DNA from: a virus
Length of the DNA: 34,728 nucleotides
Strand: one strand, 5' to 3'
UHGV virus genome: UHGV-0126338
The position numbers and the translations under genes were made by a program. How positions within the stretch are numbered: the first letter of the stretch is position 1; each line of letters opens with the position of its first letter. Below, in pieces: positions 1 through 34,678 of the stretch. The notes under the pieces are model-generated. The model saw only the letters and a list, made by a program, of their open reading frames with translations. It was not told the DNA's origin and did not search any database.

Positions 1-49
1 TTAGCAAGGTTGTGTACATTTGTACACAATTGCAGAGAGAGGAAATGAC

Positions 50-1743: not shown

Positions 1744-1931
1744 AAAAAATGCCCTCCAGTAGAGAGCATTTTTACTGTATGTATAACCAGTGTCAATGTA
1801 TGAAATCCTACGACCATACATCTCACTGAAGCCATAATGAAGTTGGCTATTCTTTTTGCTATGTGAGCATGTAACTTTTGCGGTTAACCTGCGGCTCATT
1901 TTTATTTTAGACGCAGATATAAAAGCAAAAG

Positions 1932-8305: not shown

Positions 8306-8494
8306 ATGCAGGACTATTTTTTGGAGTCTTTGAAGCTCCAGCGCATTGATTTTTTTCTTAAGCTTGTAGCGGCTAGTGAGTGTAGTGATGAAGAGAAGGG
8401 GCTGGCTCTGCAGTGGGTTTCTGAATTGACTGATGAACTCATGGCAAAAATCAGAACCCACGAATACAACCGCTCAATGGATGTCATCAGCTGA
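8306..8494 (+). CDS. Small hypothetical protein, SOS-regulated (possible antirepressor analogue)
   Basis: 62-aa ORF with RBS AGGAGG upstream, directly downstream of the LexA box and upstream of the DinI-like gene. Confidence 0.4.
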   Translation: MQDYFLESLKLQRIDFFLKLVAASECSDEEKGLALQWVSELTDELMAKIRTHEYNRSMDVIS

Positions 8495-8504
8495 GGTGAC
8501 CTTT

Positions 8505-8738
8505 ATGCGTATTGAAATAATGATCGATAAAGAGCAGAAGATTAGCCAGTCTACCCTGGACGCCCTTGAATCCGAGCTTTACCGCAATCTGCGCCCCCTG
8601 TATCCCAAAATGGTAATTCGCATCCGCAAAGGTAGCTCTAACGGTGTGGAACTGACCGGACTGCAACTGGACGAAGAAAGAAAACAAGTGATGAAGATTA
8701 TGCAGAAGGTGTGGGAAGACGACAGCTGGCTGCATTAA
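8505..8738 (+). CDS. DinI-family protein
   Basis: ORF 8433..8738 trimmed to ATG 8505 (RBS GAGGTG); 77 aa MRIEIMIDKEQ...WEDDSWLH resembles DinI (MRIEVTI...WESADDWF). Confidence 0.75.
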   Translation: MRIEIMIDKEQKISQSTLDALESELYRNLRPLYPKMVIRIRKGSSNGVELTGLQLDEERKQVMKIMQKVWEDDSWLH

Positions 8739-9684: not shown

Positions 9685-9770
9685 CGCGCGCAACTCGAGA
9701 TAGTGTGATACTTATCTGAGAAATCTTAACAAGGTTCAATACAATACCCTTTCAAAAAAAGGGGAGTGTG

Positions 9771-10922
9771 ATGTTTGTAAAAAATAACTTTAATACAAAT
9801 AATTTCGATGCGGAATTAGTTGAAGCGATTGGTAATAGGCTGGAAAACAACCAATTTTCGGATGCAATACTTGCAGGAACCAAATATCTAACAACTTTGC
9901 TGCGTGAAAAAGGGCAATGTGAAGGGGATGGGGCTCAGCTTGTTGGTACTGTTTTGGGTGGACAATCACCTAGAATCCAAATTAATAGTCTTCAATCTGT
10001 ATCAGAGCAGGACGAACAGCGCGGATTTGAAGCACTATTAAGAGGCTACTATCAGTGTATAAGAAATCCAAGGACACATGACAATTTCCCTGATACAGAA
10101 GATTCCTGCATGAGAATATTGATCATGTTGGATACTTTTATTAAGTATTTAAAAAGAGATGTTGCTGAGTTCGATTACACAGCAATTCTTGAAAGAATTT
10201 ATGAGGTTCACTTTGTAAATAATTCTGATTATGCAGAAGCTTTAATATCACAAATTCCAGAAAAAAAACTACTAGATTTTTTCCAAAGTTTAATTTCTCG
10301 CTTTAATGAAAGGCCAACCAAGGAAATTGATTCTATATTCAAAGCAATAAACCAACGCTTTTCAGGAGAGGAAGAAAAAGCCGCAATGCGGTTGCTAGGT
10401 GATGAGTTACGTAAGGCTAGCAATAATGTTGAGTTTGCTAATGTATTTAGAATAATTAAGCCGAGCGCATGGAGAAATCTTCCTGATGATGTTTTAATTA
10501 GAATGGAAAATATAATCATCGAAGAGTGCAAAAAAGGATATTTGGATTTCTATTCTGATGCGACCAAAGGAGCTATAGGAACATGGGGTAATACATTTGG
10601 TAGCAAATTTAAAAGAAGAGGTGATCTTGGTGATGCTTTAATTGGATTGTTATATGATAGTTGGTATACGCAAAATTATGTTGCGAAATATTACGTTTTT
10701 TCAATCCCTTCTATCATTACTGATGATGTGAAAGTTAAGGAGTTAGCTGATGCTTTAGCTTATGCCACCATTGTAAATGGTGCTAAGCTTTTACGAACAA
10801 AATTGATTGATGCATGTAAAAATTATCCTGATAAGTTGAAAGAGCATCTTAGGGATGCTGTTCAGCAACGGATGGATAGTGATAAAAAATATGCGGAAGA
10901 ATTATTAGGTCAAATAAGCTGA
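9771..10922 (+). CDS. Cargo protein with N-terminal HEPN-like domain (R-x4-H motif; resembles TIGR02391-type family) and uncharacterised C-terminal domain; candidate anti-phage/abortive-infection effector
   Basis: ORF 9768(GTG)/9771(ATG)..10922; RBS GGGGAG; motif IRNPRTH (R99-x4-H104, nt 10062..10079); strongly AT-rich versus the flanking phage genes; sits between cos and portal gene Q, convergent with Q. Confidence 0.6.
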   Translation: MFVKNNFNTNNFDAELVEAIGNRLENNQFSDAILAGTKYLTTLLREKGQCEGDGAQLVGTVLGGQSPRIQINSLQSVSEQDEQRGFEALLRGYYQCIRNPRTHDNFPDTEDSCMRILIMLDTFIKYLKRDVAEFDYTAILERIYEVHFVNNSDYAEALISQIPEKKLLDFFQSLISRFNERPTKEIDSIFKAINQRFSGEEEKAAMRLLGDELRKASNNVEFANVFRIIKPSAWRNLPDDVLIRMENIIIEECKKGYLDFYSDATKGAIGTWGNTFGSKFKRRGDLGDALIGLLYDSWYTQNYVAKYYVFSIPSIITDDVKVKELADALAYATIVNGAKLLRTKLIDACKNYPDKLKEHLRDAVQQRMDSDKKYAEELLGQIS

Positions 10923-10973: not shown

Positions 10974-12011
10974 CTAATCTAATTCATATGAGGTAAATTT
11001 AACCAGTTCTTCATTAAGTCCAATCCATGAGTTAATTTCAGATATTCTGTGTTGTAGCGGAATTAACTCATTCCTGACAAAAACCTTACTAGCCTTTTCA
11101 ACATCCCCAAACCCGCCAACATTACTAGGCATAATCCCCATCATCTGCGGCGGTACACGGTGCGCTGCCATCATGTCATCCCGGCTCACGTTCTTGATGT
11201 TCAGAAACTCATCTTTTGCCGCCACCTCTGACAGCGGGATGATCTGAATCCCGTCTTTCTTTCCGTTGGGTGAGTACATAAACAAGTTGCGGAAGTTGCC
11301 CGGCCCTTTGGCGCTTTTCATCGCATTGCGGAGGTTGTTCACATCCTCCTGGTTCTGCGCGGCATCGGTCATGTACATGATGAAGCCTGCATGACTACCG
11401 TTAATGTAATATTTGCGGCGGAACAGCGTGGCGGACTCGTTGAGCAAAGCGGATGGGATGGCAGAAAGATAGCCGGGCAGGCCGTAGATCTCCTGATTAA
11501 TATCTGGTTCCATCAGATGAAAAATGCTGCCTTTCGTGAACTGATACGGCTGGGTTGTCATACCGTATTGCACAAACCAGTAGGTATCCAGGTCTAACCC
11601 GCGTCGGGTATATTTTGCCAGGGCAGGCTCAAGGGCGATAACTTCACCGAAGCGGTTCGTGCGTTTCTCCAGGTAGGCGTTACCAAATACCAGGTAGTCC
11701 TGCACAAAACGTGAAAAAGCCTGCTGGCTGAGCAGCGGGTGAGGGATATAGGTACTGGTCAGAATGTTGCACTTTACTGCAATCGGGGAACTGTGATGCA
11801 CGGCAGCGCGGAAGGTGCGCGCCAGTCCGTCAAAGCTGACGGGCGGCTCATACCAACGGTCCATCTGTACGCATTCCACATAGTCCAGTAATTCTCGGCG
11901 GTCCAGAACAGGAACGGGATCGCCGAAGCTGAATGCTTCGGCTGTAGTTTGACTTTTAAGCTGGATCTGATTCGTCGCCGCAGCGCGGTTCTTCTTACTC
12001 TTTCCCATCAA
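10974..12011 (-). CDS. Q: Portal protein (P2 gpQ-like)
   Basis: 345 aa, overlaps terminase P stop; size and order match P2 Q. Confidence 0.9.
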   Translation of the reverse strand: MMGKSKKNRAAATNQIQLKSQTTAEAFSFGDPVPVLDRRELLDYVECVQMDRWYEPPVSFDGLARTFRAAVHHSSPIAVKCNILTSTYIPHPLLSQQAFSRFVQDYLVFGNAYLEKRTNRFGEVIALEPALAKYTRRGLDLDTYWFVQYGMTTQPYQFTKGSIFHLMEPDINQEIYGLPGYLSAIPSALLNESATLFRRKYYINGSHAGFIMYMTDAAQNQEDVNNLRNAMKSAKGPGNFRNLFMYSPNGKKDGIQIIPLSEVAAKDEFLNIKNVSRDDMMAAHRVPPQMMGIMPSNVGGFGDVEKASKVFVRNELIPLQHRISEINSWIGLNEELVKFTSYELD

Positions 12012-19727: not shown

Positions 19728-21524
19728 TCAGGATTGTGATAAATTTATTAAACATTGACAAAAATATTTAATGTCGTCACATATTTCATCTTTATTCATG
19801 TATTCCAGAACTTCATCTCGAGTAATTGAGAAATTATGTTTTAGTGAATTTTCGCCACTAATGAAAATTTCTTTTCCATGTGCGTCTTTTAAGGCTGCAG
19901 CTATATCTGTAGATGTTATCGAATCAGGGATAGCTAACGCATGCCTATCTCTAAAGAAGTTACGTATATCTTCTTCAGATGTCTCTGCAGCTCTTGCGAT
20001 GGCTGATATATCTAGAAAGTAATTTTCAATGTGTCTGCGACGCCATTTCATGGCTAAAAAATCACTATCGCCGTGATTAGTTGATTTATCTTTAAGATCT
20101 GCTCCTACAGAATGGTCGCTATCATCATCACGATCGCGCATGCTAATGGCTTTTAAGTCAGGAATTTCATTTTTTAATTGTTTGTATAATTGAAACCTTT
20201 CTGAAGATTTTCCAGTCCAAAGCCATGTGACAATATTTTTTGGCCATGTTAGTTCTAACTTTTTAAATATTTTTTTTAGGAATCTTTCATCGCTAACACC
20301 TTCAACAATCAACAATCTTTTGTCTTCGGTAAGTTTATGGATTTTGGGGCTAAAGATCGTGCCAATTCCACTTAATAGACCTATTTTTTCATTATCAGAT
20401 CCAAGGTATTTCCCTCTAGAATTTGATAGTGCCAAAATTTTCTGTGGTTCATAAGCCCTGATTAACTCAGTAGAGTGTGTTGCCAATAGGACCTGCTTTC
20501 CTTTTTTAATTGTTATCTCTTCTAAACGTTCAGTTAGATTTTTCTGTAATTGTGTATGTAGGTGAGCATCTGGTTCATCTAGTAGAATGACATTAAATTC
20601 TTCTGATAAGGCCAATGTATATACACTTAACCATTGAAGAAAACCGCTTCCTTCAACCATAATATCTCTAGCATTGAAGTTTTTGTGTTTTTTAAATTGA
20701 TAACCATTGACAACGCCAGCGACACATTCAATTTTTAAGTAACTATGATATTGTTCATTAAATGGAGTTACTTCAAGTTTTAAAGAAAAAAGGTCAAAGA
20801 GTGTTTTTTGTAATATTTCCCAAGGGTCTGTTTCCCTTAATAAATTAAGGTCTTTATTGGCGATTTTGTTTCGCCCTTCTTTTAACCTCCGGCGTTTGTT
20901 TTGATTCTCTAGGTGAATATCGTAAATAGAATTTCTGATTACTCCACCAGAAAGCCCCTGACCGATTAGTCGATTCCTCATTGCTGGGCTAAGACGGCTT
21001 TCTCGGTCTGTAATACCTGCAAATGGAGGGAGATAAGCTATCTGGGGTATATTCTCATTATTTGGAGAACCATCGTCATTCTGTATTTCTTGTAAAGCAA
21101 GGTTGCTAGATGTATTTTTTATAAATAATCTATCATTTGCTAATGATAAACCGATCTCTAAAAACTTCTCATTTTTTAAACTATCATCCCAAAAAAGCTT
21201 TATCTTTAGAGTATAACCATCATCTTCTGTTTGTTTTTGAGATTTTAAATTGGTCCATAAGTGGCTTAAAGACGGTATAAACATCGGCGTGAAATCGACA
21301 ATGCCTAGTCCGACACCTTGATTTGTCGCATTTTCAGTCCAACTCACTCTTCCTTTTTCAATTTCTAAAAGAGTCTTACAGAATTGCCACGTTGCCATTG
21401 CTTGCAGTAACGATGATTTACCGGAATTGTTCCCGCCGACCAGGAGGCTTAATTCGTCATTTAATTGTATTGTTGAGTTTTTATATTTTTTGAATTTCTT
21501 AAGCTCTACTTTTTTTATGTACAT
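19728..21524 (-). CDS. OLD-family ATP-dependent nuclease (N-terminal ABC-type ATPase + C-terminal Toprim), P2 Old-like
   Basis: Walker A GGNNSGKS (aa 30-37), signature-like LSGG (~aa 191), Walker B ILLDEPDAHLH (~aa 313-323), H-loop ATHS, Toprim motifs LLIVEGVSDE (~aa 405-412) and RDRDDD (~aa 463-468, nt ~20121..20138); 598 aa; AT-rich; antisense to the tail operon. Confidence 0.8.
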   Translation of the reverse strand: MYIKKVELKKFKKYKNSTIQLNDELSLLVGGNNSGKSSLLQAMATWQFCKTLLEIEKGRVSWTENATNQGVGLGIVDFTPMFIPSLSHLWTNLKSQKQTEDDGYTLKIKLFWDDSLKNEKFLEIGLSLANDRLFIKNTSSNLALQEIQNDDGSPNNENIPQIAYLPPFAGITDRESRLSPAMRNRLIGQGLSGGVIRNSIYDIHLENQNKRRRLKEGRNKIANKDLNLLRETDPWEILQKTLFDLFSLKLEVTPFNEQYHSYLKIECVAGVVNGYQFKKHKNFNARDIMVEGSGFLQWLSVYTLALSEEFNVILLDEPDAHLHTQLQKNLTERLEEITIKKGKQVLLATHSTELIRAYEPQKILALSNSRGKYLGSDNEKIGLLSGIGTIFSPKIHKLTEDKRLLIVEGVSDERFLKKIFKKLELTWPKNIVTWLWTGKSSERFQLYKQLKNEIPDLKAISMRDRDDDSDHSVGADLKDKSTNHGDSDFLAMKWRRRHIENYFLDISAIARAAETSEEDIRNFFRDRHALAIPDSITSTDIAAALKDAHGKEIFISGENSLKHNFSITRDEVLEYMNKDEICDDIKYFCQCLINLSQS

Positions 21525-21614
21525 AGTGGAGATACCTAACCTTTATTAAACCAAATCGCCTCATCATGAGAACTGGGACAGTTTACTATCTACTGAATTG
21601 TTTCTAAAGAGAAT

Positions 21615-21632
21615 TGTATCAAGTTCCAGACA
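21615..21632. promoter_or_regulatory. TGT-N12-ACA dyad (late activator site) upstream of V
   Basis: TGT ATCAAGTTCCAG ACA, centre ~57 bp upstream of the V start codon. Confidence 0.4.
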
Positions 21633-21680
21633 ATTACAATCCATTTTGGACACGCCCAATATGTGGCAATTTTTTAAGCT

Positions 21681-22259
21681 ATGAACGCACAATTAACCGA
21701 AATCATGCGCCTTATCACCAACCTGATCCGCACTGGGGTAGTCACCGAAGTGGACCGGGAGAACTGGCTTTGCCGGGTGAAAACGGGCGACCTTGAAACC
21801 AACTGGATCAGCTGGCTGACGCTGCGTGCCGGGAATGCCCGCACATGGTGGCGACCATCGGAAGGTGAACAGGTGGTGCTGCTGAGTCTGGGCGGAAATC
21901 TTGAAACCGCCTTTGCGCTGCCCGCCATCTATTCGAATCAGTTCGCACCACCGTCGACGTCGGCGGACGCCTGCGTGACAGAACATCCTGACGGTGGCTG
22001 GTTTGAATACGAACCCGCCACCGGGCGCTGGTATGTCAGAGGCATCAAATCAATGGTCATTGAGGCCGCTGACAACATCACCTTGAAAACCAGTGAGTTT
22101 GTGCTGGAGGCTGACCGCACGCGTATTAACAGCGAAGTGGCGATCAATGGTGGCGTTACCCAGGGCGGCGGTGCGATGAGTTCTAACGGGATCGTGGTTG
22201 ATGCGCATCAGCATACTGGCGTCCTGAAAGGCGGTGATACTACCGGAGGCCCGGTTTGA
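21681..22259 (+). CDS. V: Baseplate spike/assembly protein V (P2 gpV-like)
   Basis: 192 aa; N-terminus aligns by eye with P2 V. Confidence 0.85.
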   Translation: MNAQLTEIMRLITNLIRTGVVTEVDRENWLCRVKTGDLETNWISWLTLRAGNARTWWRPSEGEQVVLLSLGGNLETAFALPAIYSNQFAPPSTSADACVTEHPDGGWFEYEPATGRWYVRGIKSMVIEAADNITLKTSEFVLEADRTRINSEVAINGGVTQGGGAMSSNGIVVDAHQHTGVLKGGDTTGGPV

Positions 22260-22615
22260 CGCTTTATATCGGTATGAATAATACCAGCGGTAAAGCCATT
22301 ACTGATATTGACCATCTGCGCCAGTCGGTGCGGGACATTCTGCTGACGCCGCAGGGTAGCCGCATTGCCCGTCGGGAATATGGTTCTCTGCTGTCGGCAC
22401 TGATAGATCAGCCACAAAATCCGGCGTTACGCCTGCAGGTCATGTCGGCTGTGTATGTGGCACTGAGTCGCTGGGAGCCACGGCTGACGCTGGATTCCAT
22501 CACTATTAACAGCAATTTTGACGGTTCAATGGTGGTGGAGCTGACCGGGCGGCGGAATAACGGTGTGCCTGTGTCCCTTTCCGTATCAACAGGAGCAGAG
22601 AATGGCAGTGATTGA
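22256..22615 (+). CDS. W: Baseplate protein W (P2 gpW / gp25-like)
   Basis: 119 aa, overlapping start with V stop. Confidence 0.85.
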   Translation: MTLYIGMNNTSGKAITDIDHLRQSVRDILLTPQGSRIARREYGSLLSALIDQPQNPALRLQVMSAVYVALSRWEPRLTLDSITINSNFDGSMVVELTGRRNNGVPVSLSVSTGAENGSD

Positions 22616-23510
22616 CCTTTCGCAGTTGCCTGCACCGCAGATTGTGGATGTGCCGGACTTTGAGACGCTGCTTGCCGAACGCAAGGCAGAATTTGTGGCG
22701 CTTCATCCGAAAGATGAGCAGGAAGCAGTGATCCGCACGCTGGAACTGGAATCTGAACCAGTCACCAAATTGTTGCAGGAGAACGCTTACCGTGAGTTGC
22801 TTCTGCGCCAGCGCATTAACGAAGCCGCGCAGGCGGTGATGGTGGCTTACGCGATGGGCGGCGATCTTGACCAGCTCGCTGCCAACTACAACGTGAAACG
22901 CCTGACGGTGACGCCTGCTGATAATGACGCTGTGCCGCCCGTTGCGGCTGTGATGGAAAGCGATGAAGCGTTACGCCTGCGTGTGCCTGCAGCCTTTGAA
23001 GGGCTTTCGGTTGCGGGGCCAACTGCCGCTTATGAATTTCATGCCCGAAGCGCCGACGGTCGGGTGGCGGATGCCAGTGCAACCAGCCCGGCACCTGCAG
23101 AGGTGGTGCTGACTGTCCTTAGCCGCGAAGGCGACGGAACTGCAGAAAAAGACTTGCTGGATGTGGTGGAGAACGCCCTGAACAGTGAGAACGTCCGCCC
23201 GGTGGCTGACCGTCTGACGGTTCGCAGCGCAGAAATCATCCCGTACCGAGTGGAAGCCACCATTTTTCTTTATCCGGGACCGGAAGCAGAGCCGGTAATG
23301 GCAGCGGCAAAAGCCAGCCTGCAGAAGTACATCGCCAGTCAGACGCGTCTTGGTCGGGATATTCGCCGTAGCGCCATCTTTGCCGCCCTGCATGTTGAGG
23401 GTGTGCAGCGTGTGGAGCTGGCTTCCCCTCTGGCGGATGTGGTCCTGAACAAAACACAGGCGGCATCATGTACGCAGTGGAGCGTAACCAACGGAGGAAC
23501 GGATGAATAG
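22602..23510 (+). CDS. J: Baseplate protein J (P2 gpJ-like)
   Basis: ORF 22563..23510 trimmed to ATG 22602 (RBS AGGAG). Confidence 0.85.
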   Translation: MAVIDLSQLPAPQIVDVPDFETLLAERKAEFVALHPKDEQEAVIRTLELESEPVTKLLQENAYRELLLRQRINEAAQAVMVAYAMGGDLDQLAANYNVKRLTVTPADNDAVPPVAAVMESDEALRLRVPAAFEGLSVAGPTAAYEFHARSADGRVADASATSPAPAEVVLTVLSREGDGTAEKDLLDVVENALNSENVRPVADRLTVRSAEIIPYRVEATIFLYPGPEAEPVMAAAKASLQKYIASQTRLGRDIRRSAIFAALHVEGVQRVELASPLADVVLNKTQAASCTQWSVTNGGTDE

Positions 23511-24108
23511 TCTGCTGCCACCGGGTTCAACGCCACTGGAGCGCCGACTGGCGCAAGCGTGCAGCGGGATTTCTGATTTGCAGGTGCCGCTGCGTGACCT
23601 GTGGGATCCGGCGACCTGTCCGGTCAGTTTCCTGCCTTATCTCGCCTGGGCGTTCTCTGTGGATCGCTGGGACGAGGGCTGGACAGAAAGCGTCAAGCGC
23701 CAGGTGGTGAAGGATGCTTTTTATATTCATCAGCATAAAGGAACCACCAGTGCCGTGCGGCGGGTGGTGGAGCCGTTCGGCTTCCTGATACGAATTATTG
23801 AGTGGTGGCAGACTGGAGAAACACCGGGCACGTTTCGCCTGGACATCGGCGTGCAGGACCAGGGCATCACTGAAGATACCTATCTGGAACTTGAGCGGCT
23901 GATAAGCGATGCCAAACCATGTAGCCGTCACATGATCGGCATGTCCATCAATCTGCAAACTAGTGGCCCGCACTGGGTAGGGGCCGCCAGCTATCTTGGT
24001 GAAGAAATCACGATCTATCCGTATATCAACGAAACAATTATTTCTGGCGGCACCGCGCATGAAGGCGGGGCGGTCCATGTTATTGACACAATGAGAGTGA
24101 ATCCATGA
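23503..24108 (+). CDS. I: Baseplate/tail protein I (P2 gpI-like)
   Basis: 201 aa between J and the tail fibre gene. Confidence 0.8.
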   Translation: MNSLLPPGSTPLERRLAQACSGISDLQVPLRDLWDPATCPVSFLPYLAWAFSVDRWDEGWTESVKRQVVKDAFYIHQHKGTTSAVRRVVEPFGFLIRIIEWWQTGETPGTFRLDIGVQDQGITEDTYLELERLISDAKPCSRHMIGMSINLQTSGPHWVGAASYLGEEITIYPYINETIISGGTAHEGGAVHVIDTMRVNP

Positions 24109-25652
24109 GCACAAAATTTTATACCTTGCTGACGGATATTGGCGCGGCGAAACTTGCCAGCGCCGCCGCGCTCGGTGTGCCGTTAAAAATTACCCATATG
24201 GCGGTAGGCGATGGCGGCGGAACATTACCAACGCCGGACGCAAAGCAGACTGCACTGGTAAATGAGAAACGCCGGGCTGCGCTGAATATGCTCTATATCG
24301 ACCCGCAAAACAGCAGCCAGATTATTGCTGAACAGGTGATCCCTGAAAACGAAGGCGGTTGGTGGATACGTGAAGTGGGCCTGTTTGATGAATCCGGGGC
24401 ATTGATTGCCGTGGGCAACTGCCCGGAAAGCTATAAGCCGCAACTGGCTGAAGGCAGCGGGCGCACCCAGACCGTGCGCATGGTGCTGATTACCAGCAGC
24501 ACGGACAATATCACCCTGAAAATCGACCCTGCCGTCGTGCTGGCAACCCGCAAGTATGTGGATGATAAGGTACTGGAGCTGAAGGTGTACGTGGATGATC
24601 AGATGGCAAAACATCTTGCAGCACCGGACCCGCATTCACAGTATGCACCCAAAGAAAGCCCTATGTTTACCGGGACACCCAAAGCGCCAACGCCAGCGGC
24701 GGGGAATAACACCACGCAGGTTGCGACCACCGCGTTTGTTCAGGTGGCACTGACGGCTCTTATTAATGGTGCGCCAGCCACGCTGGACACGCTGAAAGAA
24801 ATTGCCGCAGCCATAAACAATGACCCGAAATTCAGTACCACCATTAACAATGCGCTGGCACTGAAAGCGCCGCTGTTAAGTCCGGCACTCACCGGAACGC
24901 CAACAGCCCCCACTGCCGCACAGTCGGTTAACAATACACAGATTGCCACCACGGCTTTTGTGAAATCGGCAATTGCGGCAATGGTGGGGTCTGCACCTGC
25001 TGCACTGGATACACTGAACGAACTGGCTGCGGCGCTGGGGAATGACCCGAACTTTGCCACGACAATGCTTAATGCGCTGGCAGGTAAACAACCGCTGGAC
25101 AATACGCTGACTAATTTGAGTGGAAAGGATGTAGCTGGTCTTCTCGCATACCTTGGTTTGGGAGAAGGCTCAGCGTTACCCGTTGGTGTGCCTGTTCCGT
25201 GGCCTTCAGCCACACCACCAACAGGCTGGCTGAAATGCAACGGTGCACCTTTTTCTGCCGAAGAGTACCCAAAACTGGCAAAGGCTTACCCAAAGTTAAA
25301 ATTACCGGATTTGCGCGGTGAGTTTATTCGCGGGTGGGATGATGGGCGAGGTGTTGATTCCGCGAGACTGCTGCTTTCAAGTCAGGCAGCATCTATCCTT
25401 GAACATAACCATGAAATGCATGGATGGACAGGGAACCCACTCATGGCTAGAGATGTTGGTGAATTAGGTACATCATCCGTATTTGCGGTGCAGTTGAGCA
25501 TTGGCGATGGCGGGTTATTGTATTCGTGGAAGGATGGGAGTGGAACAACAAATGACAGTAAACGAATGGATAGAACAAATCATGTCAGTTCCGGCGCCGG
25601 TGATGGTAGCCCGCGAAACATTGCATTTAACTACATTGTGAGGGCTGCATAA
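24105..25652 (+). CDS. H: Tail fibre protein H (constant N-terminal part; C-terminal ~162 aa lies inside the invertible segment)
   Basis: 515 aa with Ala/Thr-rich repeated fibre segments; recombination site at 25141..25166 inside the gene. Confidence 0.85.
   Translation: MSTKFYTLLTDIGAAKLASAAALGVPLKITHMAVGDGGGTLPTPDAKQTALVNEKRRAALNMLYIDPQNSSQIIAEQVIPENEGGWWIREVGLFDESGALIAVGNCPESYKPQLAEGSGRTQTVRMVLITSSTDNITLKIDPAVVLATRKYVDDKVLELKVYVDDQMAKHLAAPDPHSQYAPKESPMFTGTPKAPTPAAGNNTTQVATTAFVQVALTALINGAPATLDTLKEIAAAINNDPKFSTTINNALALKAPLLSPALTGTPTAPTAAQSVNNTQIATTAFVKSAIAAMVGSAPAALDTLNELAAALGNDPNFATTMLNALAGKQPLDNTLTNLSGKDVAGLLAYLGLGEGSALPVGVPVPWPSATPPTGWLKCNGAPFSAEEYPKLAKAYPKLKLPDLRGEFIRGWDDGRGVDSARLLLSSQAASILEHNHEMHGWTGNPLMARDVGELGTSSVFAVQLSIGDGGLLYSWKDGSGTTNDSKRMDRTNHVSSGAGDGSPRNIAFNYIVRAA
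25141..25166. repeat. Left inversion crossover site (gix/hix/pix-like)
   Basis: TTCTCGCATACCTTGGTTTGGGAGAA; its 14-bp end TTGGTTTGGGAGAA is an exact inverted copy of the end of the site at 27052..27077. Confidence 0.6.
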
Positions 25653-26255
25653 ATGGAACAGGCTATTTTGGGAAAAGACGGTTACGCTTTAAATGATGGG
25701 GAAATCATCGTACATAACTATGATGGCGAAACGCGGGAATATATTTCTACATCAACTGAATATCTCGCTGTCGGAGTCGGTATCCCGGCATGTTCCTGTC
25801 TGGATGCACCAGGTACACATAAAGCTGGTTATGCAATCTGTCGCTCTGTAGATTTAAATTCATGGGAATATGTGCCAGACCATCGCGGTGAAACGGTCTA
25901 TAGCACCAAAACAGGAGAATCAAAAGAAATCACCGCTCCGGGTGATTACCCTGAAAATACAACCACTATCGCCCCATTAACGCCATACGATAAATGGGAT
26001 GGTGAGAAATGGGTGACCGATACTGAGGCACAGCATAGCGCCGCAGTAGACGCGGCAGAAGCACAGCGCCAGTCACTGATTGATGCTGCAATGGCTTCCA
26101 TTAGTCTGATTCAACTGAAATTGCAGGCCGGACGTAAACTGACGCAGGCAGAAACAACCAGACTTAACGCTGTGCTGGATTACATTGACGCGGTGACGGC
26201 AACAGATACCAGCACCGCGCCGGATGTCATCTGGCCTGAACTGCCGGAGGCGTAG
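25653..26255 (+). CDS. G: Tail fibre assembly chaperone (P2 gpG-like), active orientation
   Basis: 200 aa immediately after H; C-terminus ...APDVIWPELPEA. Confidence 0.8.
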   Translation: MEQAILGKDGYALNDGEIIVHNYDGETREYISTSTEYLAVGVGIPACSCLDAPGTHKAGYAICRSVDLNSWEYVPDHRGETVYSTKTGESKEITAPGDYPENTTTIAPLTPYDKWDGEKWVTDTEAQHSAAVDAAEAQRQSLIDAAMASISLIQLKLQAGRKLTQAETTRLNAVLDYIDAVTATDTSTAPDVIWPELPEA

Positions 26256-26670
26256 GCCATTCAATATCTGGCGCACTGGAGGTATCAACCAGCTCCAGTG
26301 CATCCAGATAATCCAGCCACAAATTATATTGCGCCAGTTCCTCACCTTTCAGACGACCAATAGCGGCTTTACCGGGCCATTGCTTACTGTTCATGTATTC
26401 GTTGGCCTGGTTAATTAGTAGCTGTCTTTCTGATTCAGTAATTTCAATAAGCTCTTCATGCGTGGGTGGAGGAATATCTGCCCACGCAGGCAGCCCATCA
26501 TCTCCGGCAATACGGATTTTTCCTTGTGGCGGTTCAGCCATAAACTCACTGATAATATTTTGATTTACTTCCTTAGCGTCTGATAAATCCCATCCCTCTG
26601 ATTTATATTTATCAATCATATCCACAGGGAAAAAAGCATTATGCCTTGCGCTATAAACATATTCGTTCAT
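26227..26670 (-). CDS. Alternative tail fibre assembly chaperone (silent orientation within the invertible segment)
   Basis: Minus-strand ORF 26227..26679 trimmed to ATG 26670; C-terminus ...APDIEWPTPPAVQAR parallels G; tail-to-tail overlap with G. Confidence 0.7.
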   Translation of the reverse strand: MNEYVYSARHNAFFPVDMIDKYKSEGWDLSDAKEVNQNIISEFMAEPPQGKIRIAGDDGLPAWADIPPPTHEELIEITESERQLLINQANEYMNSKQWPGKAAIGRLKGEELAQYNLWLDYLDALELVDTSSAPDIEWPTPPAVQAR

Positions 26671-26690
26671 ATAAATCACCCTGAATAAAA

Positions 26691-27077
26691 TTACTCACCA
26701 ACAGCCCACCAACTGTAATTCATCGATACCGTGTCGCTGGTTGATGACGTTCTGTAAGCAGAATTAAAGCCGGTTAACGTTGGGCCTTCTGCAGTCATCA
26801 CGAACCCTCGCCCAGCGCCTAAAGGCGCACCGCCATCACCAGAATGAGTAAGCATGGCGCAGTCCGCTTTTTTGGGGAAAGGGATGCTGAATGTAATTCT
26901 CATTGTTTGCGTCGATAATGTCGGCGTAACCGCACCACGACCATATTGCAGGATTTTCCCGTTGGGTAATTTCATCCATCCATCACCACTGGCAAAAGAG
27001 GCCATGTCCGGTATCTGATTTTCCCCTGTCCCCACATCCCGTTTTGCCGCTTCTCCCAAACCAACGTTTATGAAAAT
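26691..27077 (-). other. Promoterless alternative tail-fibre C-terminal cassette (alternative H variable part), in frame through the right crossover site
   Basis: Minus-strand frame encodes ...VGLGEAAKRDVG... across the site, matching ...YLGLGEGSALPVG... at the left site in H; ends at stop 26691. Confidence 0.6.
27052..27077. repeat. Right inversion crossover site
   Basis: TTCTCCCAAACCAACGTTTATGAAAA; inverted relative to 25141..25166; resembles hix/gix-type sites. Confidence 0.6.
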
Positions 27078-27131
27078 GCAGAGATAACGGCTAACAGGCA
27101 TCATCTCCGGTTTTTATTCAGGGGGATGATC

Positions 27132-27698
27132 ATGCTTATTGGCTATGTACGCGTGTCAACAAATGACCAGAACACCGATTTGCAACGCAATGCACTGAAC
27201 TGTGCGGGATGTGAGCGGATTTTTGAGGATAAAATCAGTGGCACCAAGTCCGACAGACCGGGGCTGAAAAAGCTGCTCAGGACACTATCGGCAGGAGACA
27301 CTCTGGTTGTCTGGAAGCTGGACAGGTTGGGGCGCAGTATGCGGCATCTTGTTACGCTGATAGAAGAGTTGCGTCAGCGTGGCGTGAATTTCCGAAGCCT
27401 GACTGACAGTATTGATACCAGTACCCCAATGGGCCGTTTCTTTTTTCATGTCATGGGTGCCCTGGCTGAAATGGAACGCGAACTGATAGTTGAACGTACC
27501 AGGGCAGGGCTGGCTGCAGCTCGTGCCAAAGGCAGAGTAGGTGGACGCCGTCCTAAGTTGACCACCGAACAGTGGGCACAGATTGGGCGTTTACTCGAGG
27601 CCGGAGAATCAATACAGCGTATTGCACTGATTTTTGATGTAGGCGTTTCTACCATTTATAGAAAATTTCCGGCAAATAAGATCAATGAATCCCCCTGA
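27132..27698 (+). CDS. Serine DNA invertase (Gin/Hin/Pin/Cin family)
   Basis: MLIGYVRVSTNDQ... catalytic serine motif and C-terminal HTH; near-identical N-terminus to Mu Gin from memory; ORF 27126..27698 with ATG 27132 preferred. Confidence 0.9.
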   Translation: MLIGYVRVSTNDQNTDLQRNALNCAGCERIFEDKISGTKSDRPGLKKLLRTLSAGDTLVVWKLDRLGRSMRHLVTLIEELRQRGVNFRSLTDSIDTSTPMGRFFFHVMGALAEMERELIVERTRAGLAAARAKGRVGGRRPKLTTEQWAQIGRLLEAGESIQRIALIFDVGVSTIYRKFPANKINESP

Positions 27699-27746
27699 AT
27701 CAGCATTATGTTGATTATCCCTGCAAGCAGACAAATACCGTTATTT

Positions 27747-27764
27747 TGTGTGAATAACGACACA
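27747..27764. promoter_or_regulatory. TGT-N12-ACA dyad (late activator site) upstream of FI
   Basis: TGT GTGAATAACGAC ACA, centre ~85 bp upstream of the FI start codon. Confidence 0.45.
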
Positions 27765-27840
27765 ACTGCGCTTAGCTGTTTGTCAGGCACAATCACTTCA
27801 ACATAGGGCGAAGCCTAATCCAATCAGGAGGTTCGCCACT

Positions 27841-29013
27841 ATGGCTCAGGATTACCACCACGGGGTGCGCGTTGTTGAAGTCAACGAAGGCACCCGATCT
27901 ATTACCACGGTGAGCACCGCCATCGTGGGTATGGTCTGCACGGGCGATGATGCCGATGCAAAAATGTTTCCTCTTAATAAACCCGTGCTGATCACTGATG
28001 TGCTGACTGCCAGCGGTAAAGCGGGTGAGTCAGGTACTCTGGCCCGTTCGCTGGATGCCATCGCTGACCAGGCAAAACCCGTGACCATTGTTGTGCGTGT
28101 GCCGCAGGGTGAAACGGAAGACGAAACCACGACCAATATCATCGGCGCAGTGACTGCTGAAGGTAAAAAAACAGGTATGAAAGCCCTGTTATCTGCCCAG
28201 TCACAGCTCGGCGTTAAACCGCGCATTCTCGGCGTGCCAGGCCACGACACCAAGGCGGTAGCTACTGAGTTGCTGAGCGTGGCGCAAAGCCTGCGTGGAT
28301 TTGCTTACCTGTCAGCGTATGGCTGCAAGACAGTGCAGGAGGCGATCACTTACCGCGAAAACTTCAGCCAGCGCGAAGGGATGCTGATCTGGCCTGACTT
28401 TACTGGCTGGGACACGGTGCTGAATGCCGAAGCAACGGCATATGCCACCGCCCGTGCGCTTGGTCTGCGCGCCAAAATTGACGAGCAGACCGGATGGCAC
28501 AAAAGCCTGTCCAACGTGGGCGTGAACGGTGTCACCGGAATTTCTGCAGATGTGTTCTGGGATCTGCAGGACCCGGCAACCGATGCAGGTCTGCTGAACC
28601 AGAACGACGTCACCACGCTTGTGCGTAAAGACGGTTTCCGCTTCTGGGGTTCCCGCTGCCTGAGTGATGACCCGCTCTTTGCCTTCGAAAACTACACCCG
28701 CACGGCGCAGGTGCTGATGGACACGATGGCAGAAGCACACATGTGGGCGGTGGATAAACCGCTTAACCCGTCGCTGGCCCGCGACATTATCGAAGGTATC
28801 CGCGCCAAAATGCGCAGCCTGGTCAGTCAGGGCTATCTCATTGGTGGTGATTGCTGGCTGGATGAGTCGGTGAACGACAAAGACACGCTGAAAGCCGGAA
28901 AACTCACCATCGACTACGACTACACGCCAGTGCCGCCACTTGAAAACCTGATGCTGCGTCAGCGCATCACCGATCAGTACCTGGTGAATTTCGCCAGCCA
29001 GGTCAGCGCGTAA
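27841..29013 (+). CDS. FI: Tail sheath protein (P2 gpFI-like)
   Basis: 390 aa, RBS AGGAGG, followed by tube gene. Confidence 0.9.
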
Positions 29014-29022
29014 GGGGACAAC

Positions 29023-29538
29023 ATGGCTTTACCACGCAAATTAAAACACCTGAACCTGTTTAACGACGGGAACAACTGGCAGGGGATCGTTGAGTCGCTG
29101 ACGCTGCCGAAATTTACCCGCAAATATGAGAAGTATCGCGGCGGCGGAATGCCGGGTGCGGTGGATGTGGATCTGGGGCTTGATGACAGTGCGCTGGACA
29201 CAGAATTTTCCATTGGTGGTACTGAATTGCTGCTGTTTAAACAGATGGGTAAAGCCACGGTGGATGGCATCCAGCTGCGCTTTACCGGCTCTATTCAGCG
29301 TGACGATACCGGGGAAGTGCAGGCCGTGGAGCTTGTCGTGCGTGGACGTCACAAAGAAGTGGATTCCGGCGAGTGGAAGACGGGCGAAAGCAACACCACC
29401 AAAGTGACCAGTACCAACAGCTACGCGAAGCTGACCATCAATGGTGAGGTGCTCTATGAAGTGGACCTTATCAACATGGTGGAAATTGTGGACGGTGTGG
29501 ACCTGATGGAAGCGCACCGCAACGCCCTCGGCCTCTGA
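29023..29538 (+). CDS. FII: Tail tube protein (P2 gpFII-like)
   Basis: 171 aa after sheath gene. Confidence 0.9.
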   Translation: MALPRKLKHLNLFNDGNNWQGIVESLTLPKFTRKYEKYRGGGMPGAVDVDLGLDDSALDTEFSIGGTELLLFKQMGKATVDGIQLRFTGSIQRDDTGEVQAVELVVRGRHKEVDSGEWKTGESNTTKVTSTNSYAKLTINGEVLYEVDLINMVEIVDGVDLMEAHRNALGL

Positions 29539-29592
29539 TATATCTGAACGGCGCGGGATACCGCGCCAGAACCCAATTGACAGGACAGCAAA

Positions 29593-29895
29593 ATGAGCGA
29601 TAAGCAGACTGAAAAGACCATTCAACTGGATACCCCCATCAAGCGCGGTAAAACAGAAATCACCGAAATTGTGCTGCGTAAACCGCAGTCCGGTGCGCTG
29701 CGCGGTACACGCCTGCAGGCCATTATGGATATGGATGTGAACGCGATGATGACCGTGATCCCCCGCATCTCCAGTCCGGCACTGACTGCACAGGAAATTG
29801 CAGAGATGGACCCGGCAGATCTCACTGCCATGTCGGTTGAGGTTGTCACTTTTTTGTTGAAGAAGTCGGTGCTTGCCGGTTTACCGACAGCCTGA
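29593..29895 (+). CDS. E: Tail assembly chaperone E (P2 gpE-like)
   Basis: 100 aa upstream of tape-measure gene; contains slippery heptamer TTTTTTG at 29850..29856. Confidence 0.8.
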   Translation: MSDKQTEKTIQLDTPIKRGKTEITEIVLRKPQSGALRGTRLQAIMDMDVNAMMTVIPRISSPALTAQEIAEMDPADLTAMSVEVVTFLLKKSVLAGLPTA

Positions 29896-30029
29896 CGGTT
29901 GACGATCTGGTGGCAGATATCGCCACCATTTTTCACTGGCCGCCATCCGTTACTGACGTTATGCCGCTGACCGAAGTGCTGGAATGGCGGTATAAAGCGA
30001 TTCAGAGAAGCGGGGCCAACGATGAGTGA
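29593..30029 (+). CDS. E+E' -1 programmed frameshift product (frame 0 29593..29855, -1 frame to stop at 30027..30029)
   Basis: T6G slippery site 29850..29856 near the end of E; the -1 frame is open for 58 codons (VEEVGACRFTDSLTVDDLVADIATIFHWPP...RSGANDE) and ends overlapping the T start codon. Confidence 0.6.
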
Positions 30030-33000
30030 TAACAACCTGCGTCTGCGGGTCATTCTTAATGCGGTTGACAAGCTCACCCGCCCATTTCGATCTGCGCAGG
30101 CCAGTTCAAGAGAACTGGCTGCTGCTGTCAAAAAATCCCGCGATGCAATAAAGCAGCTTGATCAGGCCGGGAGCAGTCTGGACAGCTTCCGAAAGCTGCA
30201 GGCAGAAAATCAGAAATTAGGCGACAGGCTGAACTATGCCCGCCAGCGTGCAAATTTGCTCAGTCAGGAACTGGGAGCGATGGGGCCGCCTTCGCAACGT
30301 CAGGTTGTTGCTCTGGGCCGTCAACGGCTGGCTGTTCAGCGCCTGGAAGAACGCCAGAAAAAGCTGCAGCAGCAGACGGCGCTTGTGCGTGCTGAACTGT
30401 ACCGGGCGGGAATTTCTGCGAAAGACGATGCGGGAGCAACTGCCCGTTTAGCCCGTGAAACATCACGTTATAACCAGGAACTTTCGAAACAGGAGGCGCG
30501 GCTGAAGCGACTGGGGGAAGCTCAGCGCAGGATGAATGCAGCGCGTGCCAGTTATGCCCGTTCGCTGGAGGTGCGTGATCGTATTGCAGGTGCCGGAGCC
30601 ACCACCACGGCTGCAGGGCTGGCAATGGGTGCGCCAGTGATGGCGGCAGTAAAAAGCTATACCAGCATGGAAGATGCCATGAAAGGTGTGGCAAAGCAGG
30701 TCAATGGTCTGCGTGACGATAATGGCAACCGCACTGCACGTTTTTATGAAATGCAGGATGCCATCAAGGCTGCCAGCGAACAGTTGCCGATGGAAAACGG
30801 TGCGGTGGACTTCGCTGCACTGGTTGAAGGTGGTGCGCGCATGAACGTCGCAAACCCTGACGACAGCTGGGAAGATCAGAAACGTGACCTGCTGGCCTTC
30901 GCCAGTACGGCAGCAAAGGCGGCAACAGCCTTTGAGCTGCCAGCGGATGAACTGTCAGAAAGTCTGGGGAAAATCGCCCAGCTCTACAAAATCCCCACCC
31001 GCAATATTGAACAGCTCGGTGATGCGCTGAACTATCTGGATGATAACGCCATGTCGAAAGGGGCAGACATCATTGATGTGATGCAACGTCTGGGCGGTGT
31101 GGCTGACCGTCTGGATTATCGTAAAGCGGCGGCGCTGGGTTCCACCTTCCTGACACTGGGCGCTGCGCCAGAGGTTGCAGCCAGTGCAGCAAACGCGATG
31201 GTGCGTGAATTGTCCATTGCCACCATGCAAAGCAAGAGTTTCTTTGAAGGGATGAATCTGCTGAAACTCAATCCTGAAGTGATTGAAAAGCAGATGACGA
31301 AGGATGCGATGGGAACCATCCAGCGCGTGCTGGAGAAGGTAAACGCGCTGCCGCAGGACAAGCGCCTGTCTGCCATGACTATGTTGTTTGGTAAAGAGTT
31401 TGGCGATGACGCGGCGAAACTGGCAAACAACCTGCCGGAACTGCAGCGTCAGTTAAAACTGACAGCGGGCAATGATGCGCTCGGCTCCATGCAGAAAGAA
31501 TCCGACATTAACAAGGATTCACTTTCTGCGCAGTGGTTGCTGGTCAAAACCGGAGCGCAGAACACCTTCAGCAGCCTGGGCGAAACGCTGCGCCAGCCGC
31601 TGATGGATATTCTGTACACGGTGAAAAGCGTCACGGGGGCGTTGCGTCGCTGGGTGGAAGCTAACCCGGAACTGACAGGCACACTGATGAAAGCATCGGC
31701 TGTTGTGGCTGCGGTTACCGTCGGCCTCGGCACCTTAGCGGTGGCGCTGGCTGCAGTGCTGGGGCCGCTGGCAGTGATCCGTCTGGGATTCTCTGTGTTG
31801 GGTATCAAAACGTTATCTTCCGTTACGGCAGCAGTAACTCGAACCAGCAGCGCGTTGTCCTGGCTGGCTGGCGCACCACTGGCACTGCTGCGACGCGGGC
31901 TTGCTTCATCGGGCAACGCCGCAGGTTTACTTACTGCGCCGTTGTCGTCTTTGCGCCGCACGGCATCACTGACGGGAAATGTCCTGAAAACTGTAGCAGG
32001 TGCGCCGGTTGCACTTTTGCGGTCTGGATTATCCGGTTTACGTGCTGTTGCTGTGATGTTTATGAATCCTCTGGCGGTACTGCGCGGTGGACTGGCCGCC
32101 GCAGGCACGGTGCTGCGAGTACTGGCATCTGGTCCACTGGCGATGCTGCGCGTTGCCCTGTATGCCATATCTGGTCTGTTAGGTGCTCTGCTCAGTCCGA
32201 TAGGTCTTGTGGTTACTGCACTGGCGGGCGTGGCGCTGGTTGTCTGGAAATACTGGCAACCCATCACCGCATTTCTCGGTGGCGTGGTGGAAGGATTCAA
32301 AGCGGCGGCAGGTCCCATCAGTGCAGCGTTCGAACCGCTTAAGCCCGTGTTCCAGTGGATTGGCGACAAAGTGCAGGCGCTGTGGGGCTGGTTTACTGAT
32401 CTGCTGACGCCCGTTAAGTCGACCTCTGCCGAACTGCAGAGCGCAGCGGCAATGGGGCGGCGATTCGGGGAGGCACTGGCGGAAGGGCTGAATATGGTCA
32501 TGCATCCGCTGGACTCCCTGAAATCCGGCGTTTCCTGGTTGCTGGAGAAGCTCGGCATTGTCAGTAAAGAGGCCGCAAAGGCAAAACTGCCGGAAAGCGT
32601 GACGCGTCAGCAACCTGCGACGGTGAATGCAGACGGTAAAGTGATGATGCCATCGGGTGGTTTTCCATCATGGGGATATGGCTTTGCGGGGATGTATGAC
32701 AGCGGCGGGTATATCCCGCGCGGGCAGTTTGGCATCGTCGGTGAAAACGGGCCGGAAATTGTTAACGGCCCGGCAAATGTGACCAGCCGGAGAAATACAG
32801 CTGCACTGGCTGCCGTTGTTGCCGGAATGATGGGCGTTGCTGCCGCGCCAGCAGAGCTTCCACCGTTGCACCCTTTGGCACTTCCCGCGAAAGGTGGAGA
32901 AGCAATTGTGAGTCGCGCAGCCACTGTGCCGCTCGTTCAACGGATTGAGGCACCGACGCAGATCATCATTCAGACGCAGCCAGGACAAAGTGCGCAGGAT

Positions 33001-33099: not shown

Positions 33100-33581
33100 T
33101 GATGGTGCTGGGATTGTACGTGTTTATGCTGCGCACCGTTCCGTATCAGGAACTGCAGTATCAACGCAGCTGGCGACATGCGGCAAACAGTCGGGTAAAC
33201 CGACGTCCGTCTACGCAGTTTCTGGGACCGGAAAACGACATGCTGACGCTTTCCGGTGTTCTTATGCCGGAAATAACAGGCGGCAGGCTGTCGTTGCTGG
33301 CACTGGAGCAGATGGCAGAACAGGGGAAAGCATGGCCCCTGATTGAAGGCAGCGGCACGATTTACGGCATGTATGTGATTGAGGGACTGAATCAGACTAA
33401 AACGGAGTTTTTCCGCGATGGTATGCCGCGCCGGATTGAGTTCACCCTGTCGCTCAAACGGGTGGATGAATCCCTGTCCGATATGTTCGGTGATCTCAGT
33501 GCGCAGCTGAATAATTTGCAGGATACGACAACGTCTGCCTTAAGCGATATCAGTAAAACGGTGGGAGGGCTGCTGTCGTGA
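33096..33581 (+). CDS. U: Tail protein U (P2 gpU-like)
   Basis: 161 aa overlapping T stop. Confidence 0.85.
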   Translation: MMMVLGLYVFMLRTVPYQELQYQRSWRHAANSRVNRRPSTQFLGPENDMLTLSGVLMPEITGGRLSLLALEQMAEQGKAWPLIEGSGTIYGMYVIEGLNQTKTEFFRDGMPRRIEFTLSLKRVDESLSDMFGDLSAQLNNLQDTTTSALSDISKTVGGLLS

Positions 33582-34678
33582 ATTTCAGCTCTGAACTGCT
33601 TAACAAAGGCAACAAAACTCCGGCATTCAGCATCAGTATTGAGGGTAAGGATATCACCACTGTGCTGGATAACCGCCTGATGAGTCTGACGCTGACGGAC
33701 AATCGGGGCTTTGAAGCGGACCAGCTTGATCTGGAGCTGGACGACGCCGACGGAAAAATCGTGCTGCCGCGCCGTGGTGCGGTCATTACGCTGGCGTTGG
33801 GCTGGAAGGGGCAGTCGCTTTTCCCGAAAGGAGCATTCACGGTGGACGAGATTGAACACACTGGCGCACCGGACCGCCTGACTATCCGGGCGCGAAGTGC
33901 TGATTTTCGTGAAACCCTGAATATCCGCCGTGAAAAATCGTGGCACAAGACCACCGTTGGGGAAGTGGTGAAGGAAATAGCTGTGCGGCACAAACTGAAG
34001 ATGGCATTGGGTGAAGACCTGTCGGATAAACCTGTGGAGCATATAGACCAGACCAATGAGAGTGACGGCAGTTTTCTGATGCGGCTGGCGCGCCAGTACG
34101 GTGCTATTGCGTCGGTGAAAAATGGCAATCTGTTATTCATCCGGCAGGGACAGGGTAAAAGCGCCAGCGGTAAACCACTACCGGTTATCACTATCACACG
34201 TAAGGACGGCGACAGTCACCGCTTTACCCTGGCAGATCGCGGAGCCTACACGGGCGTAATTGCCAGCTGGTTGCATACCCGCGAACCCGCGAAGAAAGAA
34301 AGCACCACGGTGAAGCGTAAGCGCAGGACTAAGAAGCAGAAGAAAGAGCCGGAAGCGAAGCAGGGCGATTACCTGGTGGGTACAGATGAAAACGTGCTGG
34401 TACTTAATCGCACCTATGCCAACCGGAGCAACGCCGAACGGGCGGCGAAAATGCAGTGGGAACGCCTGCAACGTGGCGTTGCGTCATTCTCGCTACAACT
34501 GGCAGAAGGTCGGGCGGATCTCTACACGGAAATGCCAGTGAAAGTCAGAGGCTTTAAACAGCCGATAGATGATGCGGAATGGACTATTACCACCCTGACG
34601 CATACTGTCAATCCGGATAACGGTTTTACGACCAGTCTGGAGCTTGAAGTGAAGATTAATGATTTCGAAATGGAATGA
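33578..34678 (+). CDS. D: Tail protein D (P2 gpD-like)
   Basis: 366 aa, last tail gene in window. Confidence 0.85.
   Translation: MNFSSELLNKGNKTPAFSISIEGKDITTVLDNRLMSLTLTDNRGFEADQLDLELDDADGKIVLPRRGAVITLALGWKGQSLFPKGAFTVDEIEHTGAPDRLTIRARSADFRETLNIRREKSWHKTTVGEVVKEIAVRHKLKMALGEDLSDKPVEHIDQTNESDGSFLMRLARQYGAIASVKNGNLLFIRQGQGKSASGKPLPVITITRKDGDSHRFTLADRGAYTGVIASWLHTREPAKKESTTVKRKRRTKKQKKEPEAKQGDYLVGTDENVLVLNRTYANRSNAERAAKMQWERLQRGVASFSLQLAEGRADLYTEMPVKVRGFKQPIDDAEWTITTLTHTVNPDNGFTTSLELEVKINDFEME

Follow-up and report, generated by a model that had tools for sequence, protein, structure and literature searches.

The window considered here is the whole 34,728-nucleotide stretch of UHGV virus genome UHGV-0126338, and within it lies what is very probably a functional site-specific inversion switch of the Pin/Gin type (Din family), placed in the tail-fibre gene H of a P2-like Escherichia coli prophage. 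Two inverted crossover sites, site L within H and site R just upstream of a serine DNA invertase gene, bound a segment that holds two fibre C-termini with one Caudo_TAP chaperone gene apiece, arranged tail to tail. Inversion of this segment joins the alternative C-terminus to H in frame, and the near-identical prophage of E. coli strain EC931 carries positions 25153-27067 inverted. An earlier account made from the letters alone (the sequence-only reading) had called the region a Gin/Pin-type invertible segment, which the EC931 prophage supports. It had also described an expressed H C-terminus and chaperone facing a silent fibre C-terminus and chaperone, and both the open reading frames (ORFs) and the Pfam matches agree with this content.

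Both sites consist of two 12-bp arms around a central dinucleotide, the architecture of gix and pix sites, and are in register with Mu gix and with the sites of e14. When site L is aligned to the reverse complement of site R (27051-27076), which reads TTTTCATAAACG-TT-GGTTTGGGAGAA, 21 of 26 positions are equal and the central TT is the same in both. The two sites share the exact 14-mer arm TTGGTTTGGGAGAA which, with up to two mismatches allowed, occurs in the whole window only at 25153-25166 (plus strand) and 27051-27064 (minus strand). In shuffled sequence this 14-mer had a mean of 0.23 matches and reached two in 1 of 100 shuffles. The pair 25141-25167/27050-27076 was the longest inverted repeat reported by the repeat finder, and a dot-plot type of comparison of 25100-27120 with its own reverse complement gave no further notable inverted repeat, so that the L/R pair is the sole one there. 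The inverted pair with its exact 14-bp arm had been proposed from the letters alone; the position proposed for the first site, 25141-25166, was correct, and that for the second, 27052-27077, was one base too high. The inner 16 nucleotides (nt) of site L (25153-25168) equal the e14 repeat TTGGTTTGGGAGAAGG. Throughout the 30-odd related loci examined, partner sites had the same central dinucleotide in every case.

Multi-segment shuffling is a feature of the Min system of plasmid p15B. Three relatives of the present locus (L044, L052 and L056, from Pseudocitrobacter, Buttiauxella and Enterobacter) have three to four sites upstream of the invertase, direct as well as inverted, and these sets of sites imply multi-segment shuffling like that of p15B Min or of a three-site P2-like prophage of enteropathogenic E. 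coli (EPEC; PMC4272514).

The central TT of site L (25153-25154) is located within codon L350 of H, and codons 346-354 (LLAYLGLGE) contain the site. As assembled, H is made of a constant part (amino acids 1-350), a common GLGE (351-354) and a variable Collar-type C-terminus (355-515). Exchange in silico at the central dinucleotides gave an uninterrupted, in-frame H of 473 amino acids (aa), in which LAYLGLGE is followed by AAKRDVG instead of the GSALP of the native form. GLGE is thus read across the site both ways, as had been suggested, and the exact flipped 473-aa protein exists in public data: it was found on 16 public contigs and the exact native 515-aa protein on 5-8 public E. coli contigs. 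The two fibre tips belong to distinct domain families, Collar and Gp53-like_C, which is consistent with different receptors. Patches of the constant part of H show 72-75% DNA identity to their counterparts in P2 H. The expressed cassette is 85-89% identical at the DNA level to e14 stfE-tfaE (88.6% for the 200-aa chaperone gene against tfaE), and the second cassette, i.e., Gp53-like_C and the 147-aa chaperone, had no DNA similarity to e14 stfP-tfaP. Public loci of identical sequence likewise have a 147-aa call for the chaperone of the silent cassette. The gene for it converges with the other chaperone gene, and the 29 nt that they share (26227-26255) encode about the last nine residues of both proteins, one on each strand. 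In e14 tfaP/tfaE (L006 3518-3546) and in phage pro483 (L001 5068-5096) the annotation also has a 29-nt overlap; Mu has none.

Both orientations exist among natural genomes. When 240-nt native and flipped left junctions were searched in 5,426 complete E. coli genomes, the native junction was found at a coverage of at least 80% in 542 and the flipped one in 134, numbers that do not equal an orientation frequency as they depend also on the cassettes each prophage carries. The flipped junction in EC931 was 100% identical over 240 nt. Besides the inversion, the EC931 prophage differs from the window at two single-nucleotide polymorphisms (SNPs) over about 10 kb, at 24353 and 25515, and the overlap of the alignments places the breakpoints within 25150-25167 and 27050-27067, i.e., in the 18-bp shared repeat. 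In pro483, the homologous segment is reversed relative to H and the invertase. It could be argued that such differences in orientation stem from homologous recombination, cassette replacement or assembly artefacts, as recombination is concentrated in the tail-fibre regions of P2-like phages, where cassettes are exchanged (bioRxiv 10.1101/2024.10.15.618418), and the cassettes here are mosaic, with 85-89% identity to e14 stfE-tfaE and with 26533-27003 diverged in ST131 strain 4224. However, the breakpoints fall exactly in the 18-bp repeat on both sides and the interior is 99.9% identical, merely reversed. A repeat of 18 bp is too short for efficient RecA recombination, and the same cores are experimentally proven invertase substrates (PMC12529663). 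Next to inversion by a site-specific enzyme, we give these explanations almost no credence.

The EC931 locus (L003 5073-6494) is annotated in RefSeq as a truncated fibre pseudogene and a separate 'gp53-like domain-containing protein', and the GenBank record of the strain holds the full 473-aa protein, QNQ95225.1. The split in RefSeq seems to be an artefact of annotation, to which either the inversion or the single SNP at 24353 gave rise.

Draft assemblies are a further source of comparative evidence. Among 65 related loci, for which each species was represented by a single genome, 14 are on draft contigs that stop 63-92 nt upstream of the start of the invertase gene. At least 11 of these contigs stop within the site sequence, and they come from many Enterobacterales species (L015, L020, L021, L034, L036, L040, L041, L050, L065, L068, L072). 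Contig ends at this place are expected if the cultures held both orientations, because so short a repeat does not by itself break an assembly. A 716-bp contig that holds the invertase gene only (L009) had a coverage of 132 against 41 on a long contig of the same assembly (L033), about threefold, which suggests several collapsed copies.

Table 1. Coordinates of the features of the tail-fibre locus and its alignment to the EC931 prophage (window positions)
Feature	Position	Strand	Description
Crossover site L, pix/gix-like, 26 bp	25141-25166		TTCTCGCATACC-TT-GGTTTGGGAGAA, 12+2+12 register
Crossover site R, 26 bp	27051-27076		TTCTCCCAAACC AA CGTTTATGAAAA; central dinucleotide 27063-27064
Invertible segment, 1,912 bp	25153-27064		From central dinucleotide to central dinucleotide
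H, tail fibre as assembled, 515 aa	24105-25652	+	Phage_tail_fib 3.6e-65; Collar 5.1e-14 near C-terminus (Pfam)
Chaperone of expressed cassette, 200 aa, TfaE-like	25653-26255	+	Caudo_TAP 5e-33; begins right after H stop codon
Chaperone of silent cassette, 147 aa from ATG at 26670	26227-26670/26679 (ORF)	-	Caudo_TAP 2e-31
Silent alternative fibre C-terminus	26691-27062	-	Gp53-like_C 1e-12 (Pfam); H aa 351-473 after inversion
Short leader MMPVSRYLC...	27077-27104	-	MMPVSRYLCIFIN; ATG at 27104 outside segment
Serine DNA invertase, 188 aa, Pin/Gin/Cin/Hin subfamily	27132-27698	+	Resolvase 2.8e-53 (residues 3-135); HTH_7 6.3e-16 (138-181)
Candidate enhancer (sis) in 5' end of invertase gene	27153-27216		Blocks 27156-27167 and 27204-27215
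Tail sheath gene	from 27841	+	Phage_sheath_1
Window against EC931	21000-25167	+	99.98%
Window against EC931	25153-27067	-	99.9%
Window against EC931	27050-31000	+	100%

The serine invertase noted next to the segment is indeed of the Pin/Gin type, with 84.8% identity to PinE of e14 and 73.4% to Gin of Mu. It is full length and intact (N-terminus MLIGYVRVSTNDQ), matches the sequence of the Gin crystal structure 3UJ3 over residues 1-184 (E = 1.4e-91) and scores 308 bits with Gin against 122 with gamma-delta resolvase. Ser9 aligns to the nucleophile position of Gin (S9A in 3UJ3); in this family the nucleophilic serine is part of the motif YxRVSTxxQ. The exact protein occurs on at least 1,000 public contigs. 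By alignment to Gin, and with what we take to be a one-residue offset between Hin and Gin numbering, the residues in contact with Fis are present: K46, K47 and R50 (..RPGLKKLLR..), and Q150, R153 and L154 (..EQWAQIGRLL..). M114 is presumably the wild-type residue at the position of the activating Gin mutation M114V. H106 is the wild-type residue at the position of another activating change, Hin H107Y (PMC4817059). In Hin, the residues K47, K/R48, K/R51, Q151, R154 and L155 make contact with Fis or the enhancer, and outside the invertases that depend on Fis and the enhancer they are not conserved (McLean et al., PMC3798978). The wild-type residues at H106 and M114 point to a regulated, Fis-dependent enzyme.

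A 12-nt perfect inverted repeat, ATTCAGGGGGAT/ATCCCCCTGAAT (27116-27127/27689-27700), brackets the invertase gene and spans its ribosome-binding site and stop codon; a third related copy is located at 26675-26690, upstream of the silent chaperone gene. It was considered as an element sequestering the ribosome-binding site and rejected, as it is found only in this lineage and ST131 strain 4224. The repeat around the invertase is probably due to chance or specific to the lineage.

The known invertases of the Hin/Gin/Cin/Pin subfamily require a Fis-bound enhancer in cis. A degenerate Fis consensus did not fit the proximal of the two candidate cores described below, and as motif matching was no more than suggestive, a test of synonymous constraint was used instead. 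From 79 related loci, the 65 invertase genes that differ by more than 5% were codon-aligned, and identical codons were counted per identical amino acids. The synonymous-codon identity was 0.88-0.96 at codons 9-12 and 0.83-0.87 at codons 25-27, compared with 0.42 gene-wide, and none of codons 41-188 reached 0.83, although some stretches there are 98% conserved as protein. By permutation, P was 5e-5 for the first of these codon runs and 0.004 for the second. The constrained blocks are nt 25-36 and 73-84 of the gene, with centres at 27161.5 and 27209.5, i.e., 48 nt from each other, and about 98 bp separate the first of these centres from that of site R. The hin enhancer has two Fis sites with 47 bp between their centres and is about 100 bp from hixL (PMC3798978), and the title of Kahmann et al. 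(1985), cited in the same paper, places the Mu enhancer inside the invertase gene. The two-block constraint therefore matches the signature of a Fis enhancer with a geometry as in hin, and we regard the region as a candidate enhancer on the strength of codon conservation. G-N13-C 15-mer cores are found at gene nt 22-36 and 71-85, and in a scan for pairs spaced 47-49 nt, such cores lie at the same gene positions (22 and 71) in the window, e14 and Mu; they are no more than suggestive of Fis sites. Both blocks carry the family consensus except for a G at 27206.

It is conceivable that inversion is brought about mainly in trans by resident invertases, such as PinE of e14, PinQ of Qin or those of other P2-like or Mu-like prophages, and that the adjacent gene is dispensable. 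Site R is identical to an e14 site and the cores are the same, inversion of the e14 P segment is stronger with PinQ than with PinE (PMC12529663), the invertase is widespread as stated above, and E. coli genomes often carry several such loci, with up to six junction places per genome. On the other hand the invertase in cis is intact, and the spacing from the centre of site R to its ATG is conserved, being 68 bp here and 67 bp in both e14 and Mu. As the candidate enhancer lies within the invertase gene, the locus should be self-sufficient, and any cross-activity would supplement the activity in cis, not replace it. We therefore find a dispensable invertase highly improbable; inversion in trans as an addition to that in cis is plausible because of the identity to the e14 sites.

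By analogy with the better studied members of the family, inversion by the adjacent enzyme would proceed as follows. Dimers of the 188-aa serine invertase would bind both 26-bp sites, while host Fis would bind the two-site enhancer in the first ~90 bp of the invertase gene. On supercoiled DNA, both sites and the enhancer would assemble into an invertasome, in which Ser9 is predicted to cut each site at the central TT/AA dinucleotide. Half of the tetramer would then rotate by 180 degrees, and rejoining would leave the 1,912-bp segment reversed. H has its promoter, its start codon and everything up to codon 350 beyond the limits of the segment, so that fibre is made only from the cassette connected to this part. 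The orientation of the window would give the 515-aa fibre with the Collar-type tip and the 200-aa chaperone, and the other orientation would give the 473-aa fibre with the Gp53-like tip and the 147-aa chaperone. With two fibre forms, a population of lysogens may thus release virions of two receptor specificities.

Several points speak against an active switch of this kind, and some of them would fit a fossil, in which the sites and the gene are kept, inversion has been lost, and the differences between strains date from an older active state. First, the evidence for inversion is comparative, i.e., between strains, and comes from relatives rather than from one culture of the source strain itself. 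Second, a convincing invertase promoter was not found in a sigma-70 consensus scan, and in a promoter and terminator scan of 24000-28000, matches were no commoner than in shuffled sequence and nothing convincing was seen for the invertase or after the chaperone genes. Third, the G at 27206, the third position of invertase codon 25 in the distal block and so in the presumed distal Fis site, changes a conserved position of the candidate enhancer, which is A in 94% of 68 related genes; a pyrimidine-purine step is retained despite the G. Fourth, the G...C cores are 49 nt apart, not 47-48, and the distal core is G-rich at its centre. More generally, Fis binding and enhancer function are proposed from codon conservation and from what is known of the family, and the probable change in host range is put forward by analogy with Mu and P1. 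Loss of inversion is nevertheless very unlikely. The invertase is not truncated and lacks none of the catalytic or Fis-contact residues. In EC931, the region 27050-31000 is 100% identical, the same G27206 included, in combination with the opposite orientation and two SNPs over ~10 kb. This shows that a flip took place very recently with this exact enzyme and enhancer, and since EC931 has flipped since divergence, G27206 does not abolish activity. An active inversion switch thus remains by far the best explanation for the locus.

A less ordinary feature is a short leader that opens outside the segment, crosses site R and reads into whichever cassette is silent, here as a free-standing 137-aa ORF (26691-27104, minus strand). 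Relatives with an open cassette and a spacer of 54-55 nt number 15, among them Mu, and all of them keep the outside in-frame ATG. A conserved TGGCAT(G/C)AT about 35 nt upstream of the invertase ATG occupies homologous positions in L010-L078, Mu (L005) and e14 (L006), and on the minus strand it is the in-frame ATG-CC (Met-Pro) that opens a leader of 9-10 codons. The e14 stfE leader and StfE2 are the positional analogue of this ORF, and e14 StfE2 was reported in 2025 to block adsorption of phage T2 (PMC12529663). It is tempting to speculate that the 'silent' cassette is expressed as a StfE2-like ORF and that the switch also toggles a receptor mask protecting the lysogen. We consider this unlikely, because TGGCAT(G/C)AT may simply be the invertase promoter, of which it could be the -10 element. 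If true, it might nonetheless give the leader ORF, the only less ordinary lead from this locus, a role in the lysogen as for StfE2.

Other genes in the window resemble defence cargo. A 598-aa ATPase gene (19728-21524, minus strand) stands alone on the opposite strand, in the place that orf30 has in P2; its neighbours are V (21681-22259) and a gene like S of P2 (19278-19721). Its best PADLOC matches are fused AriAB (1.1e-25), AriA and GajA, and Pfam gives AAA_15 and a weak DUF3226, making it a candidate single-gene defence gene of the OLD/PARIS-like type. The EC931 prophage carries this gene too; ST131 strain 4224 lacks it at the corresponding place. In the old/tin hotspot of P2, with replication gene A (5739-8153) on one side and portal gene Q (10974-12011, minus strand) on the other, a 384-aa ORF (9768-10922, plus strand) matches Hypoth_Ymh (Pfam, 2.9e-23) as well as PD-Lambda-3_B (2.4e-14) and Aga_HEPN (PADLOC); from these matches it probably belongs to the defence cargo. 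The gene at 8433-8738 is DinI-like. The left end carries a TetR-family gene (20-586, plus strand) followed by a phage integrase gene (691-1899, minus strand; Int_N and Phage_integrase), which suggests that the first part of the window is host DNA at the attachment site of the prophage and that the rest takes in almost all of the prophage, up to and including gene D (33578-34678).

Host-range inversion switches of this type have been understood since the 1980s. The present system is likewise already known, as deposited P2-like phages with the same gene order, invertase included, are numerous; reports of inversion in such prophages go back to 2014 at the latest, and the locus opens no new question. 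Its biological role would be that of a bet-hedging host-range switch. Recognising it is of use mainly to annotators: the 'recombinase family protein' belongs to one functional unit with the fibre gene and the 'orphan' gp53-like ORF. Public PGAP annotation gives the parts generic names and, in EC931, breaks the fibre up into a pseudogene plus an orphan. Where assemblies of such prophages disagree in orientation or end at the sites, the cause is biological and not an error.

Among known systems, the e14 P segment of K-12 is close in its sites: its right-hand site equals site R at 26 of 26 positions, and its left site has the same inner half-site and central TT as site L. The segment that PinE and PinQ invert in e14 ends in the repeats TTGGTTTGGGAGAAGG and CCTTCTCCCAAACCAA, as determined by sequencing and quantitative PCR (PMC12529663), and inversion in e14 has also been seen by whole-genome sequencing (PMC4272514). 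The segment is reported as 1,797 bp in e14, compared with 1,912 bp here. While e14 is a defective lambdoid remnant, the fibre gene here has a full-length P2-type N-terminus and belongs to an apparently complete P2-like prophage. The G segment of Mu, inverted by Gin, is alike in having a constant fibre N-terminus, two C-termini and two chaperone genes tail to tail as S/U and S'/U' and a same-strand invertase gene immediately downstream. It differs in its central dinucleotide (TC/GA, whereas TT/AA is found here), in length (~3.06 kb against ~1.9 kb) and in context, as Mu has a Mu-type virion and chaperone genes without overlap, whereas the present locus has overlapping chaperone genes in a P2-type virion context.

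This P2-type context, that of the Peduoviridae, is evident from the families around the locus, Phage_base_V, GPW_gp25, Baseplate_J, Tail_P2_I and H, followed by sheath, tube and tape-measure genes, and the best phage matches are Peduovirus records. Invertase-bearing P2-like phages have the same order of genes, namely I, H, tfa, tfa', silent fibre end, DNA invertase and tail sheath. Such relatives include pro483, 500465-1 and Cartapus (Escherichia), the phage of O157:H43 T22, Klebsiella KP12 and prophages of EPEC E2348/69. Their DNA is 85-96% identical in parts, and the difference is confined to which cassettes are paired; in some of them, three or four sites go with more than two alternative ends (PMC4272514). 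In the P2-like prophages of EPEC, inversion was shown by sequencing in 2014, a three-site variant included (PMC4272514), and a survey of 2024 found a DNA invertase with inverted neighbouring genes to be frequent in the Z/fun hotspot of P2-like phages (bioRxiv 10.1101/2024.10.15.618418). Classical P2 (NC_001895) shares the V W J I H G ... FI order and the N-terminal domain of H. It has a single 669-aa H and one G, followed by a terminator, fun(Z) on the opposite strand and then FI, and is without an invertase, a second cassette or pix-like sites, in agreement with the sequence-only reading that it has no such system. The same reading took the locus to be a mosaic; this is correct in that a P2-type fibre shaft is combined with an inversion module of the e14/Mu type, but the combination is not unusual, being annotated in many P2-like phages.

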